Source of the DNA: Alphaproteobacteria bacterium MarineAlpha12_Bin1
GTDB taxonomy: Bacteria; Pseudomonadota; Alphaproteobacteria; UBA6615
Length of the DNA: 64,000 bases
Reading direction: 5' to 3'
Assembly: GCA_002937505.1 (NCBI GenBank)
Contig: PTJY01000003.1
Location: 128,060-192,059 of the forward strand
Both the position numbers and the translations under genes were made by a program. Of this stretch, positions 1,677 to 13,477 are shown piece by piece. Positions within the stretch are counted from its first letter, which is position 1, and the number at the start of each line of letters is the position of its first letter. The notes below the pieces were generated by a model that was given only the letters and a program-made list of their open reading frames with translations, was not told the origin of the DNA and did no database searches.

Positions 1677-2444
1677 ATGCGTGGGCTAGATAACAAAGTT
1701 GCAGTAGTAACAGGTGGAAGTGGAGCAATAGGAAGATCTATTTGTCGTCGTTTTGCTGAAGAAGGGACACACATTGGTATTTTTGATATAAATGAAGAGA
1801 GCGCCCTAGAAACAGTCCAACTTATAGAGAGCTCTGGAGGTAAAGCGTCAGCATACAAAGTGGATATTACTGACTATGCTGCTGTAAAAAAATCAAAAGA
1901 AATATTTGAAGATGAAGCGGGATCAACAGACATACTGATTAACAACGCTGGTTGGGACCGTTTAGTGAACTTTCTAGATACTAAACCAACATTTTGGGAT
2001 CAAATTATTTCTATTAATTTAGTAGGAGCATTGAATATGCACCATATTTTCCTTCCCAGCATGGTAAGCAATGGTACAGGAAAGATAGTGAATATTGCAT
2101 CTGATGCTGGACGAGTTGGCTCAAGTGGTGAAGCTGTTTACTCTGCATGCAAGGGAGGAATAATAGCCTTTACCAAGACTCTCGCCAGAGAAGTTGCTAA
2201 GACGGGCATCTGCTGCAATGTGGTGGCTCCTGGGCCTATTGATACACCCCTACTAAGATCTATGACACCAGACGGCAATTTGGATGCAGGACTAGGTAAA
2301 GCATTTAAAAGGGCGATACCCATGAGACGCATAGGTGAACCAGATGATATACCAGGCATTGTAGCTTTCCTCTCCAGTAGCGAAGCCGATTATATAACTG
2401 GTCAGGTTATAAGCGTATCTGGAGGACTTACTATGCACGGGTAA
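1677..2444 (+). CDS. SDR-family oxidoreductase, BadH-like (2-hydroxycyclohexanecarboxyl-CoA dehydrogenase-like)
   Basis: SD sequence AGGAGAG upstream. TGGSGAIG Rossmann motif, NNAGWD, IVNIASDAGRVGSSGEAVYSACKGG (catalytic YxxxK) and GQVISVSGGLTMHG. These motifs closely match my recollection of Rhodopseudomonas BadH. Confidence 0.75.
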   Translation: MRGLDNKVAVVTGGSGAIGRSICRRFAEEGTHIGIFDINEESALETVQLIESSGGKASAYKVDITDYAAVKKSKEIFEDEAGSTDILINNAGWDRLVNFLDTKPTFWDQIISINLVGALNMHHIFLPSMVSNGTGKIVNIASDAGRVGSSGEAVYSACKGGIIAFTKTLAREVAKTGICCNVVAPGPIDTPLLRSMTPDGNLDAGLGKAFKRAIPMRRIGEPDDIPGIVAFLSSSEADYITGQVISVSGGLTMHG

Positions 2445-2505
2445 CCATTTCCAATTAAATAAAGAGAAAAAACATAAAACCTATAGTGTATGGGAGAATA
2501 TTCTA

Positions 2506-3300
2506 ATGAATTATGATGATATTATTTATGTAAAAGACTCTGGTATTGCCACCATTACAATCAACAGGCCAAAAGTATATAACGCCTTTCGCGCTCAAAC
2601 CGTGGTTGAGCTGATTGACGCCTTTCAGGACGCAGGATGGGATCGTGAAATAGGTGTGGTCGTGTTAACTGGAAGTGGAGATAAGGCATTCAGTACTGGC
2701 GGCGACCAATCAATCGACAGCAAAGGCAGCGGTGTGTATGGACAACTACGCGGTACTATTGGTATGCCAATAAATGAATTACAAGCCTTGATGAGAGATA
2801 TACCTAAACCAGTTATCGCTAAAGTGAGGGGATACGCAATTGGTGGGGGTAATGTCCTTGCTACAATCTGTGACATGACAATAGCATCAGAAAACGCAAA
2901 ATTCGGCCAAGTTGGACCCAAAATGGGATCCGTGGACCCAGGCTGGGGTACAGCTTATTTAGCTCATATCGTGGGAGAAAAGAAAGCAAGAGAAATTTGG
3001 TACATGTGTCGTCAATACACAGCCCAAGAAGCAGAAGTAATGGGATTAGTTAATAAAGTTGTACCTGACGACTGCCTGGATGACGAAGTAAATAGTTGGT
3101 GTCAAGAGCTAGTTGAACGAAGCCCAACGGCAATTGCAATCGCCAAGCGTTCTTTTAACGCAGATACAGATCATATTAACGGAATAGGTGCTATGGGAAT
3201 GGAATCTCTGCGTCTGTACTATGAAACCGAGGAATCTAAAGAGGGGGGTAATTCCTTCCGAGAAAAACGTAAACCTGAGTTCCGAAAATATGTGAAGTAA
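2506..3300 (+). CDS. crotonase-superfamily enzyme of the MenB/BadI family (1,4-dihydroxy-2-naphthoyl-CoA synthase / 2-ketocyclohexanecarboxyl-CoA hydrolase-like)
   Basis: Near-colinear with E. coli MenB over its whole length: FSTGGDQ, PKPVIAKVRGYAIGGGNVL, FGQVGPKMGSVDPGWG, KKAREIWYMCRQY, EGGNSFREKRKPEF. GGGAGAA SD sequence. 58 nt downstream of the BadH-like SDR. Confidence 0.8.
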   Translation: MNYDDIIYVKDSGIATITINRPKVYNAFRAQTVVELIDAFQDAGWDREIGVVVLTGSGDKAFSTGGDQSIDSKGSGVYGQLRGTIGMPINELQALMRDIPKPVIAKVRGYAIGGGNVLATICDMTIASENAKFGQVGPKMGSVDPGWGTAYLAHIVGEKKAREIWYMCRQYTAQEAEVMGLVNKVVPDDCLDDEVNSWCQELVERSPTAIAIAKRSFNADTDHINGIGAMGMESLRLYYETEESKEGGNSFREKRKPEFRKYVK

Positions 3301-3358: not shown

Positions 3359-3670
3359 ATGCCTGCGTATTGGTTAGCTAGAGCTCAAATCAATGACCCT
3401 ATTGAGTATAAAAAGTATACTGACAAACTGCCTCCATTGTTTGAAAAATATAACGCAAAAGTTCTAACAAGAGGTGGAGACTTTAGAGTACTTGAAGGGA
3501 GCTCTCCCCCATTTGAACGTTTCGTGGTAGTAGAGTTTGAATCACTAGACTCAGCAGAAACATTTTTTAACTCTGATGAATACACCAATGCTGCAGCTTT
3601 CCGAAGAGCACCTGGAATAGCTAATAATGAACTGATAATTGTTGAAGGTGGTGATTTTACCCCAGTTTAG
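3359..3670 (+). CDS. DUF1330-domain protein
   Basis: 103-aa ORF with AAGGAGAAG SD sequence. Sequence MPAYWLARAQINDP ... FVVVEFESLDSAETFFNSDEY is typical of DUF1330. Confidence 0.55.
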   Translation: MPAYWLARAQINDPIEYKKYTDKLPPLFEKYNAKVLTRGGDFRVLEGSSPPFERFVVVEFESLDSAETFFNSDEYTNAAAFRRAPGIANNELIIVEGGDFTPV

Positions 3671-3693
3671 ATAATACGTATATTTGTGTTAGC

Positions 3694-3912
3694 TCATTTT
3701 TTTCTAATTACAAAAGTTAACACATTATCTTCTTCAATAGCGCTTTCTAAAGTGTCTCCTGTAGCCGAACAAAAGTGCTTAAAATCCTTCAATGCTCCCG
3801 GATCTGTAGCAATCACTTTTAGGTGCTCTCCAGGATTAACATTTTTTATTGCCCTTTTAGCCTTTAGAACTGGTAGAGGACATTTAAGGCCAGAAGTATC
3901 TAATACTTGCAT
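3694..3912 (-). CDS. tusA: TusA-like sulfur-carrier protein
   Basis: 72-aa ORF with the LDTSGLKCPLPVLKAKRAI CPxP motif characteristic of the TusA/SirA family. Confidence 0.7.
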   Translation of the reverse strand: MQVLDTSGLKCPLPVLKAKRAIKNVNPGEHLKVIATDPGALKDFKHFCSATGDTLESAIEEDNVLTFVIRKK

Positions 3913-4067
3913 GAATTAGTCCGTTTCTAATTTTAACCAAAGGTTGATTGTTTTACCCAAAACTAATCAAGTGTGAATTATAAGTTTACTTGATTATACA
4001 TAAAGTATAAGCCAATAATCGGCTATAGTAATTAAAAAGGGTGCATTAAAAAACAAAGGCCGAAAAA

Positions 4068-4403
4068 ATGTCAAATCAGGTCAAGTTCTTAGAGCCTATA
4101 GAGGTGCTAAAAAAAATTAGAACGGGGTCCGCCTATGTTGTTGATGTAAGGGAACCTCATGAGCATGCCCAATCACACATAAAAAATGTTCCCCTGATGT
4201 CGCTGTCTAAATTTAATCCTAAAGAAATAAAACCAGCAGAAAATCAGTTGCTTATCCTTCACTGTAGAAGCGGACATCGATGTGGCATAGTATCAGATCA
4301 ACTTATTGCGTCTGGCTACAAGGGATTGATTTATCGTATGAGCGGTGGATTACTTGCTTGGGAAAAGGCTGGATTGCCATTGGAAACTAATATAACTAAC
4401 TGA
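4068..4403 (+). CDS. single-domain rhodanese (thiosulfate sulfurtransferase-like)
   Basis: 111-aa ORF. Active-site loop HCRSGHRCG (Cys followed by basic residues) is typical of the catalytic rhodanese domain. Confidence 0.7.
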   Translation: MSNQVKFLEPIEVLKKIRTGSAYVVDVREPHEHAQSHIKNVPLMSLSKFNPKEIKPAENQLLILHCRSGHRCGIVSDQLIASGYKGLIYRMSGGLLAWEKAGLPLETNITN

Positions 4404-4443
4404 GTATTATTACCATTTTCATTCTACCAAAGTCAGCCAATTA

Positions 4444-5370
4444 ATGAATATTTACTTACCGATAGCAGAAATGTCGGTTGACGTTTTTCTCATCTTGGGA
4501 TTGGGAGGAGCGGTTGGATTTTTATCAGGATTATTTGGTGTAGGCGGCGGTTTCTTAATGACACCATTATTAATTTTTATCGGGATACCACCTGCAGTAT
4601 CTGTTGCGACTGAAGCCAATCAAATAGTCGCCGCATCAGTCTCAGGTGCTTTAGCACATATGCGACGACGGAATGTAGACTTTAAAATGGGATTAGTGCT
4701 TACCGCGGGAGGCTTTGTGGGCTCTGGGGTAGGTGTTTTAATATTCACTTTATTGCGGCAAGTGGGTCAGGTGGATCTTCTTATAGCAGCTAGTTACGTG
4801 GTTATGCTGGCGGCAATCGGGTCATTGATGCTTTTTGAAAGTAGTAGAACTATACTCAGACGCCAAGCAGGAACGGCAACTAGAGGAAAACTGCACCAAC
4901 ACATGTGGCTCCACGGGCTTCCTTTCAAAATGAGATTTAGGCGTTCTAGACTTTACATAAGTGCCATTTTACCTCTGGGCATAGGCTTCATAGTTGGTAT
5001 TCTAGCAGCAATAATGGGCGTTGGAGGTGGGTTTATCATGGTTCCTGCTATGATTTATCTGCTTGGAATGCCCACAGCTATTGTGGTTGGAACTTCTCTT
5101 TTTCAAATTATTTTTGTTACTTCTAGTGTTACCTTTCTTCAAGCAACTACTAATCAAACTGTTGATATTGTTTTAGCTCTATTGTTACTTACGGGAGCAG
5201 TAATTGGAGCTCAGTTTGGCACCAAAGTTGGAACTAGATTACGAGGTGAGCAGCTTCGTGGACTTTTAGCAATTTTAGTACTCGTCGTTTGTGGAAAAAT
5301 TGCTTACGATTTAGTATCTACTCCAATTGATTTATTTTCCATTAGCGAAATCACAGGATTTACAAGATGA
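4444..5370 (+). CDS. TauE/SafE (DUF81) family sulfite/anion exporter
   Basis: 308-aa polytopic membrane protein with two internally repeated halves. GGGFLMTPLLIFIGIPP and GGGFIMVPAMIYLLGMP are the hallmark DUF81 repeats. Confidence 0.75.
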   Translation: MNIYLPIAEMSVDVFLILGLGGAVGFLSGLFGVGGGFLMTPLLIFIGIPPAVSVATEANQIVAASVSGALAHMRRRNVDFKMGLVLTAGGFVGSGVGVLIFTLLRQVGQVDLLIAASYVVMLAAIGSLMLFESSRTILRRQAGTATRGKLHQHMWLHGLPFKMRFRRSRLYISAILPLGIGFIVGILAAIMGVGGGFIMVPAMIYLLGMPTAIVVGTSLFQIIFVTSSVTFLQATTNQTVDIVLALLLLTGAVIGAQFGTKVGTRLRGEQLRGLLAILVLVVCGKIAYDLVSTPIDLFSISEITGFTR

Positions 5371-6146
5371 ACAAATTCTGTAGTTCCCTGGTGATTTTAG
5401 TAGTCGCTTTGTGTTTGGTCAAAGAACAAGCAAACAGCGAAGAGATTAAAAATAAGAATAAATTAATTTATTCAGCTTTAGTCGCAGACCTTAGCGAAGA
5501 CCTTATAGCAATAACAACGAGGTTTACGGGAACCGAAGTGTTGTTATTTGGAGCCACTAACGGCATAGGTGACATAATTGTTGTGGTTAGGGCCCCGAAC
5601 AGCGAAGTAACCGTTCGCCAAAAAGGAAGAGTTGGAGGGGTTTGGATAAACAAAGAGGGCATCATATTTAACAACGTTCCTGGTTTTTATCACCTCGCCT
5701 CTTCACGACCTATAGATGAATTACTGCCCCAAGCTGTACTAAAAAAAGAACAAATTGGAGCAGAAAACCTTTCGGTAGTTCCAGTAACAGCGGCCCACGG
5801 CATAGATATTTCATCGTATAAGAAAGCATTAATAAGAAACAAAAAAAGATCTGGTTTATATAATACTCAACCAGGAAAAATCACTTTTCTAAGTAATCGA
5901 CTTTTCAAAACAAGCGTTGACTTTCCATCAAGTGTTCCCATTGGAAAATATTCTGCAGTTGTATACCTAGTAGATAACGGTACAATTATTGATAGAACCA
6001 AAACTCCATTACAAGTGCAAAAAACGGGATTTGAGGCTAAAGTGTTCGAGTTTGCCAATAATCAGCCGTCCTATTACGGTATAGTGGCGGTTGTTATTGC
6101 GTTGTTTGCTGGTTGGCTAGCAAGCGTCATGTTCCGAAATGTATAG
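5367..6146 (+). CDS. TIGR02186-family protein (alphaproteobacterial partner of DUF81 transporters); signal peptide plus C-terminal TM anchor
   Basis: Start codon overlaps the TauE stop (ATGA). N-terminal signal-like MNKFCSSLVILVVALCLV and a C-terminal hydrophobic helix. Assignment rests on the conserved adjacency to DUF81. Confidence 0.45.
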   Translation: MNKFCSSLVILVVALCLVKEQANSEEIKNKNKLIYSALVADLSEDLIAITTRFTGTEVLLFGATNGIGDIIVVVRAPNSEVTVRQKGRVGGVWINKEGIIFNNVPGFYHLASSRPIDELLPQAVLKKEQIGAENLSVVPVTAAHGIDISSYKKALIRNKKRSGLYNTQPGKITFLSNRLFKTSVDFPSSVPIGKYSAVVYLVDNGTIIDRTKTPLQVQKTGFEAKVFEFANNQPSYYGIVAVVIALFAGWLASVMFRNV

Positions 6147-6195
6147 ACTTATTAAGCCTTTTATCCAAATGGATTAACAAAGCAATGAAACAATA

Positions 6196-6687
6196 ATGGT
6201 AGATTTAAATAATAACTTTGATCAGCTGAAAGTCTTTTTAGTTGTCGTAGATAATACTTCTGAAATGCGATTAGCGCTTAGATACGCCAGTTTAAGAGCC
6301 AAAAAAACAGGAGGACGAGTTGGCTTATTACGTGTTGTTAGAAAGGCTGACTTCCAGCACTGGGCTGCAATAGGAAATTTGATGAGGGAAGAAGCTAGAG
6401 AACAGGCTGAACAATTATTACAAGAACATGCAGCAACTGTGTTGGAGCTTACTGATGGAGAAATACCGATTCTCTACATAAAAGAAGGAGATGCTAAATC
6501 TGCTTTACTAAACTTAATAAATGAAGATAGACAAATTTGTCTTCTAATTTTAGCTGCTTCAACAAACAGGCGTGGACCAGGACCCCTTATCACGCATTTA
6601 ACAAAAAAAGTTATCGGACAACTCCGCATTCCAATAACCATAGTCCCTGGAGGTCTAACCAACGAAGAAATTGACAAATTAGTATAA
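6196..6687 (+). CDS. universal stress protein (UspA)-like alpha/beta protein
   Basis: 163-aa ORF with alternating beta-strand and helix pattern (LKVFLVVVD ... ICLLILAAS ... IPITIVPGG). Same strand and cluster as the transporters. Confidence 0.45.
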   Translation: MVDLNNNFDQLKVFLVVVDNTSEMRLALRYASLRAKKTGGRVGLLRVVRKADFQHWAAIGNLMREEAREQAEQLLQEHAATVLELTDGEIPILYIKEGDAKSALLNLINEDRQICLLILAASTNRRGPGPLITHLTKKVIGQLRIPITIVPGGLTNEEIDKLV

Positions 6688-6712
6688 AAAGATAAACAAG
6701 GATTAACCGAAA

Positions 6713-7795
6713 TTGTTCAGATTAAATTCTTTATTGCCCGGTATATTGCTCTCCACTGTAATATATTTATTAGCTGATATTATAAGTGGCTTTATAGGCA
6801 AACAAATCTTTTTTTATGACAGAAGTCCAATATCTACGGTGTTACTAGCAATATTAATTGGCATTACTGTTAACAATTTTATAAAAATAGGAGAGACCTT
6901 TTCAAAGGGAATTAATTTCTCTTTAAAGTTTATTCTACGACTTGGAATTATCCTACTAGGAATTCGTATTAGCATTTCAGACGTTCTTATATATGGGTCA
7001 GTTTCAATACCTTTAATTGTCATTTGTATAATATCGGTTTTGTTGTTTGTACGTTTTAGTATCAAACACCTAAATATTACATCTGAAATGTCCTACTTAA
7101 TAGCTATAGGAACATCCATCTGTGGTGTTAGTGCTATTGTGGCAATGGCACCTGTTATAAATGCTAAGAGGGGAGAAATAGCGTATGCAATAGCAAATAT
7201 AACAATTTTTGGCATGCTTGGAATGTTAATCTATCCTTATTTAGCAAACTTTATATTTGATGGAGGAGAAAACTCTATTGGACTTTTCTTAGGCACAGCA
7301 ATTCATGATACCGCTCAGGTAATAGCATCAGGGCTGATTTATGAGCAGCAGTTTGCCAATACGAAAGTTATAGAAGTGTCAACAATAACAAAACTTGTAA
7401 GGAACACTTTTTTATTACTAATGATCCCTCTTTTTGCTTATTTCTATAATAAGGAAAAAAATAGTAAAGATTACTCGACCAAAGGGATATTTCCACTATT
7501 TGTAGTAGGATTTCTACTAATGGTGATTTTACGTACAACGGGTGATGAGTTAATTACTAACAGAGGACTTTTTATAGACCCCAGTCTATGGGATCAGGCC
7601 GTATCCCAACTTAAAGAGCTTTCTGTTGTATTCCTGAGTATTGCAATGGCGGCGTTAGGGCTATCAATAAACATCAAAGAGTTAAAAGATATGGGGTACA
7701 AACCGTTCGTCGTTGGCTTTTCTGCTGCAGCTATTGTTGGTGTAGTTAGCATTATTACTATTACAATATTCAATAAAATAAATCTTATTCTTTAA
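6713..7795 (+). CDS. YeiH/UPF0324 (putative sulfate exporter, PSE) family membrane protein
   Basis: 360-aa polytopic protein. TTG start with AAGGA 12 nt upstream. N-terminal region and overall hydropathy are typical of YeiH. Confidence 0.6.
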   Translation: MFRLNSLLPGILLSTVIYLLADIISGFIGKQIFFYDRSPISTVLLAILIGITVNNFIKIGETFSKGINFSLKFILRLGIILLGIRISISDVLIYGSVSIPLIVICIISVLLFVRFSIKHLNITSEMSYLIAIGTSICGVSAIVAMAPVINAKRGEIAYAIANITIFGMLGMLIYPYLANFIFDGGENSIGLFLGTAIHDTAQVIASGLIYEQQFANTKVIEVSTITKLVRNTFLLLMIPLFAYFYNKEKNSKDYSTKGIFPLFVVGFLLMVILRTTGDELITNRGLFIDPSLWDQAVSQLKELSVVFLSIAMAALGLSINIKELKDMGYKPFVVGFSAAAIVGVVSIITITIFNKINLIL

Positions 7796-9983: not shown

Positions 9984-10419
9984 AAATTTTAAATCCCAAT
10001 AACCAGTAACAACTTTATCAAGATACTTCTAAGAATGGTTAACACCAAGCCCATATTAAGCAAATTTTAGCGTCAAATAACAAAATAATCATAGTCCATT
10101 ATTTGACACTAGATTGCACAAAAAACGAATCAGTCATCATTTTTATACAAAAAATATGAAAAATGACGTAATTTTATTACCCAAAAAAATAATAATCATA
10201 TCAAGTTAATTAAATTAACATTGTTCAACTTTATTTCTATCAAGTTTAAGGAATTTTCATAAAACCTTTAATTATCGTAAATTTACATGTCTAGACAATA
10301 TATACCATAGTAATAATTCCTGATTTTACTTTCATTTACAGTAAAAGTACTTTTATAGAGGGTTTTTACAAATATTTATCAAGTAGTTATACTATATTTG
10401 CTCTGGTTAAAAATCTATC

Positions 10420-10452
10420 AATTTGATTCGTGCTTGACAGTTGAATCAAATT
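10420..10452. promoter_or_regulatory. perfect 10-bp inverted repeat AATTTGATTC-N13-GAATCAAATT enclosing a TTGACA hexamer
   Basis: Read directly: 10420-10429 is the exact reverse complement of 10443-10452, and the spacer contains TTGACA (10434-10439). Lies about 75 nt upstream of the 10527 ORF in a ~540-bp AT-rich gap. Confidence 0.3.
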
Positions 10453-10526
10453 CTAAGAAAAATTTATCAAGGCCTATTTTAGGTCTTTTATTAACTTTAA
10501 GTCTATAACCACCTATAGGGGGACTT

Positions 10527-10766
10527 ATGCCAGGAAGTGTAATTGAAACAATCAAAAAGTGGATCGGTCAAATTACTGAGCTCGGTCTACTTTTAATAGC
10601 GCTTGCTATAGTACTTCAAATATTAATCGGAGGTAACCTTGCGTTCTTCGATGATGTTGTTGGTAACCTTACAGCTCTTATCGCCGCGCTTGGTGATAAC
10701 GGCTTAGTTGGCTTAATCGCAATAGGTATTATTATGTGGCTCTTTGCGAAACGAAGCCCAGGTTAA
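10527..10766 (+). CDS. small two-helix membrane protein (79 aa), function unknown
   Basis: Strong SD sequence GGGGGA before the ATG. Amphipathic N-terminus followed by two hydrophobic helices separated by NLAFFDDVVGN. Followed by a perfect terminator. Confidence 0.5.
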   Translation: MPGSVIETIKKWIGQITELGLLLIALAIVLQILIGGNLAFFDDVVGNLTALIAALGDNGLVGLIAIGIIMWLFAKRSPG

Positions 10767-11737: not shown

Positions 11738-11851
11738 CCTGAAAACTGATAGTTTTTGGTAAACTGGAGACGTCTTTAATAGCAGTTGATAGAAAATATA
11801 TGTAATGTCTAATATTAAAATAAGCTGATTGATATTTATGTGAGGATTGCT

Positions 11852-13477
11852 ATGCGCGGATTAATAATGGATAAGCCCCTGATGATTTCATCATTAATTG
11901 AACACGCGAATCGTGTTTCTGGTGACAGAGAAATAGTAACAAGGTCTGTAGAGGGGCCAATTCATCGATATACATATGCTGACGCATACGTCCGAGTGCG
12001 CAAACTGGCCAATGCATTATCTGAATTAGGAATGAAACTAGGAGACAGAATTGCAACTTTGGCATGGAACACCAATCGTCACTTTGAGTGCTACTATGCA
12101 GTTTCAGGGATGGGCGGAATAACACATACTCTCAACCCAAGGCTTAGCCCTGAGCAACTTATATATATAATCAACCATGCGGAGGACTCTTATATATTCG
12201 TAGATGTCAACTTACTTCCATTAGTCGAAGCTGTCTCAAGCAAATTGAGATCACTTAAAGGGATAATTGTTTTAACAGACGAAAATAACCTTCCTGAATC
12301 CAAACTAGATAATTTAATTTGCTACGAAAAATTAATAGATGATCATTCTATGGTTTCAGATTGGCCAGAGTTTGACGAAAACACCGCATCGTCGCTTTGT
12401 TACACTTCCGGTACAACTGGTAATCCAAAAGGAGCACTTTATAGCCATAGATCAACAATATTACATGCTTACGCTTCTGCACTTCCTGACGTAATGAATC
12501 TATCGGAAAAAGAAGTAGTTTTGCCAGTGGTCCCAATGTTTCATGTGAATGCATGGGGAATCCCATACGGTGCGACTATGACAGGTGCAAAACTTGTATT
12601 TCCTGGACCAAAACTAGATGGCGCTAGTGTGCATGAACTCCTAGTAGAGGAAGAAGTTACAATGGCTGCTGGTGTACCAACCGTCTGGCTTGGCCTACTT
12701 AACCATTGGAAAGCAAATAAAACTAAAGTGCCCTCATTAAAAAGAACTATCATAGGCGGTACAGCGGTACCCCAATCAATGATTGAAACTTTTCAAGAAA
12801 AATTCAACGTTGACGTACGTCATGCATGGGGCATGACAGAAATGAGTCCTCTAGGGACAATTTCCATACCTAAAGAAAAAATTGTAAAAGAAGGAAAACA
12901 AAAACGTTATAGGTCACAGATAAAACAAGGACGTCCAGTATTCGGCGTCGAGATCAAGATTGTTAATGACCAGAACGAAACATTACCCAATGATGGTAAA
13001 GCATTTGGAGAGCTACTTGTACGAGGACCTTGGATTACGAGCGGCTATTTCAAAAATGATGACTCTGATTCACATAATAATGATGGATGGTTTGCTACAG
13101 GTGATGTTTGTACTATTGACCCCGAAGGCTATATGGAGATTACTGACCGGGCTAAAGACGTGATTAAGTCTGGAGGCGAATGGATAAGCTCAATAGATTT
13201 AGAAAATCAAGCCATGGGCCACCCCGATGTGATGCTGGCCGCAGTGATCGGCGTACCTCATCCCAAATGGGATGAAAGACCAATTTTAATTGTGGTGCCT
13301 ACAGAGGGTAAAACCCCTAATCTAGAATCAATTAATGAGTTTTTATCAGACAAGGTTGCAAAATGGTGGTTGCCAGATGATTTGATTTTAGTTGAGGACC
13401 TACCTCTTGGCCCGACAGGAAAGGTCCTAAAAACTAAACTAAGAAAAGAGTTTGGAAAACACGCGCTTCCAGAATGA
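11852..13477 (+). CDS. AMP-dependent acyl-CoA synthetase of the DmdB/FadD-like alphaproteobacterial family (3-methylmercaptopropionyl-CoA ligase-like)
   Basis: AMP-binding motifs YTSGTTGNPKG and GWFATGD. N-terminus PLMISSLIEHA ... LAWNTNRHFECYYAVSG ... TLNPRLSPEQLIYIIN matches my recollection of Ruegeria DmdB. Start moved to ATG 11852, 5 nt downstream of GAGGA. The ORF track begins at an upstream GTG. Confidence 0.75.
   Translation: MRGLIMDKPLMISSLIEHANRVSGDREIVTRSVEGPIHRYTYADAYVRVRKLANALSELGMKLGDRIATLAWNTNRHFECYYAVSGMGGITHTLNPRLSPEQLIYIINHAEDSYIFVDVNLLPLVEAVSSKLRSLKGIIVLTDENNLPESKLDNLICYEKLIDDHSMVSDWPEFDENTASSLCYTSGTTGNPKGALYSHRSTILHAYASALPDVMNLSEKEVVLPVVPMFHVNAWGIPYGATMTGAKLVFPGPKLDGASVHELLVEEEVTMAAGVPTVWLGLLNHWKANKTKVPSLKRTIIGGTAVPQSMIETFQEKFNVDVRHAWGMTEMSPLGTISIPKEKIVKEGKQKRYRSQIKQGRPVFGVEIKIVNDQNETLPNDGKAFGELLVRGPWITSGYFKNDDSDSHNNDGWFATGDVCTIDPEGYMEITDRAKDVIKSGGEWISSIDLENQAMGHPDVMLAAVIGVPHPKWDERPILIVVPTEGKTPNLESINEFLSDKVAKWWLPDDLILVEDLPLGPTGKVLKTKLRKEFGKHALPE

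Follow-up and report, generated by a model that had tools for sequence, protein, structure and literature searches.

A putative sulfur-trafficking and sulfite-disposal gene unit around the TauE-TIGR02186-USP trio of a marine alphaproteobacterium

The window analyzed here is a 64,000-nucleotide stretch of contig PTJY01000003.1 from a marine alphaproteobacterial metagenome-assembled genome (MAG) of ~38% GC, Alphaproteobacteria bacterium MarineAlpha12_Bin1. An earlier note, made from the sequence alone, had described six genes at 3694-7795 as a cluster suited to handling thiosulfate or sulfite, encoding a TusA-like sulfur carrier, a rhodanese, a TauE-family permease, a protein of the TIGR02186 family, a USP-domain protein, and a YeiH-family transporter. 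Our analysis favors, with a probability of about 0.5, the reading that this region holds a unit for sulfur trafficking and sulfite disposal, specific to its lineage and assembled on an ancient membrane module of Alphaproteobacteria. The more general claim, that the cluster is a functionally linked sulfur and sulfite unit, stands at even odds or slightly better. The general theme of thiosulfate or sulfite handling is supported by the SoeABC-type sulfite dehydrogenase found in the YeiH slot of related loci, by an SqrR-type repressor in relatives, and by the published links between YeiH and sulfite resistance.

Conservation of the TauE-TIGR02186-USP trio and the genes joined to it

We surveyed 95 loci anchored on TIGR02186, drawn from homologue-encoding contigs and one metagenome scan, and annotated them by iterated profile searches, with the window and Pfam-annotated neighbors as seeds. 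Neighborhood counts are given after dereplication at 90% identity and include only the loci with enough flank; individual loci are referred to by L numbers. A scan of genome contigs with a single TIGR02186 protein as query gave 2 close loci only, and the rhodanese was discarded as an independent search anchor because the homologue search returned 3 close relatives and then generic rhodaneses of ≤44% identity. TauE was encoded directly upstream of TIGR02186 in all 53 dereplicated loci, an obligate pairing in agreement with the earlier description of TIGR02186 as the alphaproteobacterial partner of TauE, and USP was encoded directly downstream of TIGR02186 in 55 of 61 loci. The 4-nt overlap reported for the window between tauE (4444-5370, + strand) and the TIGR02186/Alph_Pro_TM gene (5367-6146, + strand) is real (...AGATGAAC..., with ATGA at 5367-5370). 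In 86 of 89 loci, the tauE stop overlaps by 4 nt or 1 nt with an in-frame start codon, which points to conserved translational coupling. TauE-TIGR02186-USP is a deeply conserved core across Alphaproteobacteria.

The TauE of the window is a 308-aa permease of the DUF81/TSUP family (PF01925, 166 bits over residues 18-285), which matched no NCBIfam equivalog and is 88% identical in L001 and L002. Its 259-aa TIGR02186 partner (PF09608, 261 bits versus a cut-off of 24.5) was modeled with AlphaFold2 from a 46-sequence alignment (pLDDT 85.6). The model is bitopic: an N-terminal signal/anchor helix precedes two beta-sandwich domains, and a transmembrane helix lies at the C terminus. A PDB fold search with the model gave generic immunoglobulin-like (Ig-like) beta-sandwich matches only, with TM-scores ≤0.27. 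Because of this predicted architecture and the coupling to tauE, TIGR02186 probably serves the TauE permease as a single-pass accessory subunit whose Ig-like domains lie in the periplasm. The third member, usp (6196-6687, + strand), encodes a 163-aa USP-domain protein (PF00582, 50.3 bits). The ATP-binding motif of the UspFG class, G-x2-G-x9-G-[ST], was seen in 0 of 81 homologues, the window protein included, and a conserved GPGPL(I/V)..L.GK motif takes its place; by its sequence, the trio USP seems to represent a separate USP subfamily associated with the transporter. Full-text literature searches for TIGR02186, PF09608, and Alph_Pro_TM returned no paper that mentions the family, those on TSUP/DUF81 returned nothing on a TIGR02186-paired TauE subtype, and the differential-expression tables of a Hyphomicrobium study (PMC11582611) listed no TIGR02186 gene. 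The Hyphomicrobium TauE Hden_0720, which has been cited as a sulfite exporter, is not of the TIGR02186-paired type; it sits between a TIGR01244 sulfurtransferase and a metallo-beta-lactamase (MBL)-fold hydrolase.

The rhodanese was found in 6 of 49 dereplicated loci, a proximal TusA in 8 of 42, and YeiH in 3 of 41. The neighborhood analysis that the earlier note had proposed as a check did not support co-conservation of the six genes beyond one clade. Elsewhere only TauE, TIGR02186, and USP travel together, and the majority context is murJ-trpS-tauE-TIGR02186-usp-nfu, without sulfur enzymes, rhodanese, TusA, or YeiH. The loci of the window's type form a single clade in the TIGR02186 tree, with mtnA and tusA on one side and (ArsR repressor)-rhd-tauE-TIGR02186-usp on the other, followed either by yeiH or by the genes of a three-subunit molybdoenzyme. 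Among 33 dereplicated well-flanked loci, all 6 that carry the rhodanese also have a proximal TusA together with YeiH or SoeABC, and YeiH or SoeABC was found downstream in none of the 27 that lack the rhodanese. L012 keeps the cluster though its flanks differ from those of the window. The cluster is carried, for example, by the MAG GCA_002433205.1, and its SoeABC version by the complete chromosome OZ253937.1.

Outside this clade, other lineages join TauE-TIGR02186 to sulfur genes independently. A separate clade (L010 and L038) combines tusA, a gene for a DsbD-like membrane protein, an ArsR repressor gene, and tauE-TIGR02186, without usp, and L028 has the DsbD-like protein and the ArsR repressor with tauE-TIGR02186, without TusA. 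Directly upstream of tauE-TIGR02186 there is an SoeABC-type molybdoenzyme in L045, and a pair of PALP (CysK/CysM-like) and ThiF-family genes in L067 (4935-6739), which comes from a marine lineage. A distal TusA-like gene of the housekeeping loci was not counted as an association, as it belongs to a different subfamily with a CP(M/L)TF motif; this gene recurs ~4.5-7 kb downstream of the trio (L008 14643-14834, L031 9150, L060 13144, and L092 15034).

The slot after usp and the repressor of related loci

In the window, usp is followed by yeiH (6713-7795, + strand, TTG start), the final gene of the unit, which is convergent with mmsA. It encodes a 360-aa transporter of the YeiH/PSE family (UPF0324; PF03601, Cons_hypoth698, 241 bits) that is 76% identical in L001. 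The same slot is occupied by a cytoplasm-facing sulfite dehydrogenase of the SoeABC type in L002, L012, L017, L020, L029, and L030, and SoeABC is absent from the window. L002 retains the flanks of the window (short-chain dehydrogenase/reductase [SDR], crotonase ... MmsA, flavin reductase, small open reading frame [ORF], and hydrolase; 63-88% protein identity) and has a molybdoenzyme between usp and mmsA in place of yeiH. This enzyme has a length of 962-982 aa, an N-terminal Fe4S4 cysteine motif, and no twin-arginine (Tat) signal, and is followed by a ~250-aa four-cluster ferredoxin (Fe-S) subunit and a ~315-aa DmsC-type anchor. This three-subunit architecture of molybdenum-bis(pyranopterin guanine dinucleotide) (Mo-bisPGD), Fe-S, and anchor proteins without a Tat signal was found in L002 (11235-15900), L012 (8417-13055), L029 (4461-9132), L030, and L045 (1-4589). 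As NCBIfam has no SoeA model, its best match being PhsA below the cut-off, the identity of SoeA rests on the architecture, the missing Tat signal, and the naming in IMG, where members at least 90% identical are called 'sulfite dehydrogenase (quinone) subunit SoeA' and 'SoeC'. SoeABC is a membrane-bound enzyme that oxidizes sulfite in the cytoplasm, and the architecture of the enzyme in the sister loci fits this published description (PMC6335251; PMC11507549). In L012, a second, stand-alone TauE is encoded right after SoeC.

Studies in other bacteria connect YeiH with sulfite. A yeiH knock-out of Salmonella is highly sulfite-sensitive, and yeiH is sulfite-induced through YeiE (PMC12880088); the YeiH homologue of Bordetella pertussis is cysteine-induced and matters for sulfur homeostasis (bioRxiv 10.64898/2026.04.22.720190); and the Hyphomicrobium yeiH homologue is the strongest thiosulfate-induced gene (526-fold), with YeiH and a TauE together proposed as sulfite exporters (PMC11582611). 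By analogy with these proteins, the YeiH of the window probably serves sulfite efflux. No divergent LysR regulator (YeiE) adjoins the window's yeiH, the neighbors being usp and the convergent mmsA. The protein tree, drawn from a single protein and of limited resolution, suggests at least one replacement between YeiH and SoeABC in this slot, and probably two. That two unrelated cytoplasmic-sulfite removers alternate at one slot argues more strongly than any other finding for a unit in which cytoplasmic sulfite is generated or handled.

Most members of the clade carry a two-cysteine repressor gene as well: an ArsR-family gene lies between tusA and rhd in L001-L004, L029, and L030 (for example, L003 5166-5700 and L002 8076-8617) and mtnA follows tusA in the sister lineages. 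The L002 repressor aligned end to end with HlyU (E = 1e-27), Rhodobacter SqrR (6o8k-o; E = 9e-24), YgaV, and BigR. The SqrR/BigR/HlyU group senses persulfides. In most relatives, the cysteine pair of the repressor (LILCHL, LYKLYCA) aligns with the SqrR pair (MIMCYL, VYEQFCS): both cysteines were aligned in L002, L028, L029, L030, and L038, and not in L001, L003, and L010. The L001 copy looks degraded and is without the first cysteine. Just upstream of the repressor gene there is a conserved promoter and palindrome element, ATTGACCnTTTTTCnnATATnnnAATAyACTAAT (ATTGACC...ATAT...ATACTAAT), located at L003 5250-5286, L001 8128-8164, L002 8155-8195, and L029 1373-1412. As a -35/-10 pair overlapping an ATAT...ATAT palindrome, this element looks promoter/operator-like by sequence.

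A tblastn search for a repressor remnant in the window found none, and judged from this comparison the repressor and mtnA were lost in the window's lineage, where a spacer of 155 bp is left that is the same in L013 and L014. Because there is no repressor in the window genome, expression of the unit is probably constitutive or under different control. The tusA-rhd spacer contains a sigma-70-like match at 3990-4019, which is a consensus match only.

Gene layout, catalytic residues, and flanking genes

All six ORFs described earlier were recovered in place and matched the Pfam families assigned to them, each protein scoring well above the gathering score. The positions and families of six consecutive genes thus stood, but the genes are not co-oriented: tusA (3694-3912; PF01206, 78 bits), the gene of a 72-aa sulfur carrier of the TusA/SirA type, runs on the - strand and the others on the + strand. 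The cluster thus consists of a divergent tusA and a co-oriented five-gene rhd-tauE-TIGR02186-usp-yeiH unit with spacers of 40, -4, 49, and 25 nt, separated by an AT-rich divergent intergenic region of 155 bp (3913-4067). The first gene of the unit, rhd (4068-4403, + strand), encodes a 111-aa single-domain rhodanese (PF00581, 46.5 bits). The tight spacers and the lack of a convincing internal terminator are compatible with one transcription unit, and the genes from rhd to yeiH would form an operon. Promoter and terminator scans of the cluster region gave chance-level matches only, and an Rfam scan of the window gave no RNA elements. The same arrangement was found in independent assemblies of the window's own species (L013-L015), and therefore it is not an assembly artifact. 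By Pfam, the TIGR02186, YeiH, and TusA proteins are family members, but they are divergent, because they score below the stricter NCBIfam cut-offs; for TusA, the score was 53.9 versus 78 bits for the TusA equivalog (NF001423).

The rhodanese retains its catalytic cysteine, as the earlier note had read from an intact loop. The loop HCRSGHRC (4260-4283) aligns with the catalytic-cysteine loop HCQAGKR of Escherichia coli YgaP, and the closest solved relatives, the YgaP rhodanese domain and 6mxv, have the cysteine aligned; the Cys-less homologue that had been named as the case against the cluster does not hold on alignment. Scores for the GlpE and PspE equivalogs were far below the cut-offs. The loop is conserved in all relatives that have the gene; its second cysteine at +6 (C-R-S-G-x-R-C) is kept in every rhodanese of the clade and could form an intramolecular di- or trisulfide. 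The description of TusA as a CPxP sulfur carrier also agrees with the alignment, in which its CPLP cysteine is matched to the CPEP cysteine of E. coli TusA (1dcj/3lvj). The second TusA cysteine (HFC) also aligns with E. coli TusA, and both cysteines are kept in every locus with the rhodanese/TusA arrangement. Sulfur would be transferred from the rhodanese to TusA. No DsrE or DsrE2 gene was found beside rhd and tusA, all ORFs at 3359-7795 being assigned to other families.

The earlier placing of the cluster beside genes of organosulfur and CoA-thioester catabolism holds for mmsA and the DmdB-like ligase, but the other flanks do not look like organosulfur genes. MmsA passes TIGR01722, and the ligase (11840-13477, + strand) passes the NCBIfam DmdB (3-(methylthio)propionyl-CoA ligase) equivalog with 831.8 versus 822 bits. 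This DmdB-type gene, of the type acting in dimethylsulfoniopropionate (DMSP) demethylation, lies ~4 kb from the sulfur cluster and is syntenic in L001, L003, and L004. The evidence did not extend to a functional link of the cluster with mmsA and dmdB: there is only conserved synteny within the clade, and the flanks of L012 are different. On the upstream side, a BadH-like SDR and a BadI-like crotonase (1677-3300) are both below the equivalog cut-offs, and in L013 (1-6150) cupin, 2-oxoglutarate (2OG)-oxygenase, and flavin adenine dinucleotide (FAD)-hydroxylase genes stand beside this pair. This gene content points to an alicyclic/aromatic acid catabolic island rather than organosulfur catabolism. 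At 14-43 kb, the window carries housekeeping genes (for GlyRS, PPDK, GatAB, and an ATP-binding cassette [ABC] transporter of the nucleoside type), and genes for the sulfite-generating desulfonation enzymes Xsc, SuyAB, and CuyA were absent within 10 kb either side of the cluster. A 79-aa hydrophobic ORF (10527-10766, + strand) has no Pfam or NCBIfam match and is 77-85% identical in L001 and L002; the intergenic region before it (9984-10526) is 540 bp long with ~24% GC.

Competing readings, known systems, and meaning

In the reading that we prefer, one marine clade would have placed the trio behind a rhodanese, opposite a divergent tusA, and would then have added a remover of cytoplasmic sulfite, YeiH in the window and the quinone-linked SoeABC in sister lineages. 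A sulfane-carrying oxyanion, most simply thiosulfate, would reach the cytoplasm, with entry via TauE-TIGR02186 favored; the rhodanese cysteine would accept the sulfane sulfur with release of sulfite; TusA would relay the persulfide sulfur to assimilation or cofactor pathways; and YeiH would expel the toxic sulfite, which SoeABC would dispose of in the sister lineages. We infer the substrate that the unit transports and cleaves, as well as the substrate and direction of TauE in the window, from gene content and context, and this specific import-and-cleave scheme is put forward tentatively.

Several observations weigh against the preferred reading. All loci with rhodanese, TusA, and YeiH or SoeABC fall in one clade of the TIGR02186 tree, so their perfect co-occurrence is not phylogenetically independent. 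The core trio, which is mostly in a housekeeping context, may have a general role unrelated to thiosulfate, and to our knowledge there is no TSUP protein with a biochemically established substrate or direction. Within 10 kb either side of the cluster and at 1-43 kb of the window, there is no acceptor for the sulfur of TusA and there are no persulfide dioxygenase, SQR, Sox, or Cys genes. The window is without the repressor that connects the relatives with reactive sulfur species. Finally, the TIGR02186 protein scores below the NCBIfam TIGR02186 cut-off (196.9 versus 255.25), and YeiH below that of TIGR00698 (154.6 versus 232.6).

The earlier note had proposed two parallel exporters, with the rhodanese splitting thiosulfate, TusA carrying the sulfane sulfur, and both TauE-TIGR02186 and YeiH effluxing sulfite or sulfate. 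In Pfam and in the source annotations, TauE is labeled a sulfite exporter and YeiH a putative sulfate exporter; a Hyphomicrobium study has put both forward as exporters of sulfite (PMC11582611); and the stand-alone TauE after SoeABC in L012 would suit sulfate export. However, a compact operon would then have to hold redundant exporters, and the entry of the substrate is left unexplained. The TSUP family has proposed importers, such as the name-giving toluene-sulfonate uptake protein, and TauE-TIGR02186 beside the cysteine-synthase-like and ThiF-like genes of L067 fits assimilatory uptake better. Nothing shows that TauE-TIGR02186 exports, and import fits the contexts at least as well; we regard the two-exporter proposal as unlikely.

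It is improbable, too, that the cluster makes up the accessory half of a cst/BigR/yrk-type system that detoxifies sulfide and persulfide. Persulfide and sulfite would then come from an SQR and a persulfide dioxygenase encoded elsewhere, sulfane sulfur would be shuttled by the rhodanese and TusA or combined by them with sulfite into thiosulfate, and the oxyanions would leave through TauE and YeiH. In favor of this reading, the characterized cst and yrk clusters bring TauE, TusA, and rhodanese together (PMC9918477), and the relatives have a repressor of the persulfide-sensing SqrR/BigR/HlyU group. The rhodanese is nearest to YgaP, which shares an operon with YgaV, another match of that repressor, and the DmdB-type ligase 4 kb away hints at a DMSP/methanethiol turnover yielding sulfide. 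Known systems, however, keep the persulfide dioxygenase and SQR genes in the same cluster, and no Lactamase_B/persulfide dioxygenase or SQR gene was found within 7-10 kb either side in the window and its relatives, or at 14-43 kb of the window.

We likewise give little credence to the absence of any functional unit, that is, a housekeeping trio beside unrelated sulfurtransferase genes and a transporter, which common descent would have kept together in one clade. In its favor, 27 of 33 well-flanked loci have no rhodanese, TusA, or YeiH, and all positives belong to one clade; synteny in that clade extends to the flanking catabolic genes; and single-domain rhodaneses and TusA also have housekeeping roles (tRNA thiolation and molybdenum cofactor synthesis). 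Against it, the slot after usp alternates between two different cytoplasmic-sulfite removers, TauE-TIGR02186 has been joined to sulfur genes independently in three further lineages, L012 retains the cluster despite different flanks, the genes are tightly spaced, and in relatives the unit is headed by a reactive-sulfur repressor.

The earlier statement that the combination is not a characterized operon type was too strong. TauE is combined with TusA and rhodanese in the Staphylococcus aureus cst and Bacillus yrk clusters (PMC9918477), rhd-tusA adjoins soeABC in sulfur oxidizers (PMC6335251), and TauE and YeiH have been proposed together (PMC11582611). All parts belong to known families, and they are arranged as a variation of clusters already established for sulfur trafficking; new here are the TauE subtype partnered by TIGR02186 and USP, the position of yeiH inside an operon-like unit, and the lack of a dioxygenase, SQR, DsrE, and a regulator. 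The cst (tauE-cstR-cstA-cstB-sqr) and yrkDEFHIJ clusters share with our loci the functions of a TauE-family permease, a rhodanese, and TusA, and a persulfide-sensing repressor (PMC9918477), which here occurs in relatives only, where it is of the ArsR/SqrR type and not of the CstR/CsoR type; the window has none. Compared to these clusters, the window is also without persulfide dioxygenase, SQR, and DsrE, its TauE is an alphaproteobacterial subtype with TIGR02186 and USP, and YeiH is added. The rhd-tusA-dsrE2 and soeABC-rhd-tusA-dsrE-hdr clusters of Allochromatium and Acidithiobacillus are alike in linking rhd and tusA to SoeABC (PMC6335251; PMC11507549), and the sister loci of the window have rhd, tusA, and soeABC. 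Unlike those sulfur-oxidizer relay clusters, the window has no DsrE/DsrE2, Dsr, or sHdr acceptor nearby and carries YeiH, not SoeABC, and its host is a marine heterotroph-like MAG.

The pair of rhodanese and repressor resembles E. coli ygaVP because the best solved relative of the rhodanese is YgaP, to whose catalytic domain the window protein is most similar, and the repressor of the relatives matches YgaV. It also matches the regulators of the SqrR, BigR, and HlyU regulons, with two cysteines aligned to the SqrR pair. BigR operons also contain DUF81 permeases. In contrast to these systems, the rhodanese of the window is soluble, without a transmembrane segment, and there is no regulator and no Blh-type dioxygenase. 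The YeiE-YeiH systems of Salmonella, E. coli, Bordetella, and Hyphomicrobium have a transporter of the same family, PF03601, with an inferred role in the removal of cytoplasmic sulfite (PMC12880088; 10.64898/2026.04.22.720190; PMC11582611); they differ from the window, where no divergent LysR gene is present, yeiH is last in a five-gene unit, and the TIGR00698 score falls short as given above. Import by YeeE/YeeD (TsuA/TsuB) and SoxT-TusA follows the same logic, a permease with a TusA-type cytoplasmic acceptor for thiosulfate-derived sulfur (PMC11582611), whereas the permease of the window, a hypothetical importer, is of the TSUP/DUF81 family with a TIGR02186 partner and not of the YeeE family.

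TIGR02186/PF09608, TauE, and USP make up a near-universal alphaproteobacterial trio, for which this comparison provides the first concrete functional lead: at least 4 separate contexts join TauE-TIGR02186 to sulfur-carrier, sulfite-oxidizing, cysteine-synthase-like, or persulfide-sensing genes. Independent genomic support for the recent genetic evidence that YeiH proteins handle sulfite, not sulfate, comes from the alternation of YeiH and SoeABC. More speculatively, the trio may be a dedicated two-component sulfur-oxyanion (thiosulfate/sulfite) transporter across Alphaproteobacteria, its permease acting together with a single-pass subunit of periplasmic Ig-like domains and a USP regulator of the non-ATP kind, which marine lineages would have repeatedly wired to TusA, rhodanese, and the interchangeable sinks SoeABC and YeiH under a persulfide-sensing repressor. 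If true, this possibility would assign a function to PF09608 and provide the first TSUP permease with an obligate accessory subunit, and streamlined marine heterotrophs could use thiosulfate sulfur without sulfite reduction. Should the thiosulfate reading hold, it would bear on how abundant marine heterotrophs obtain or dispose of sulfur.

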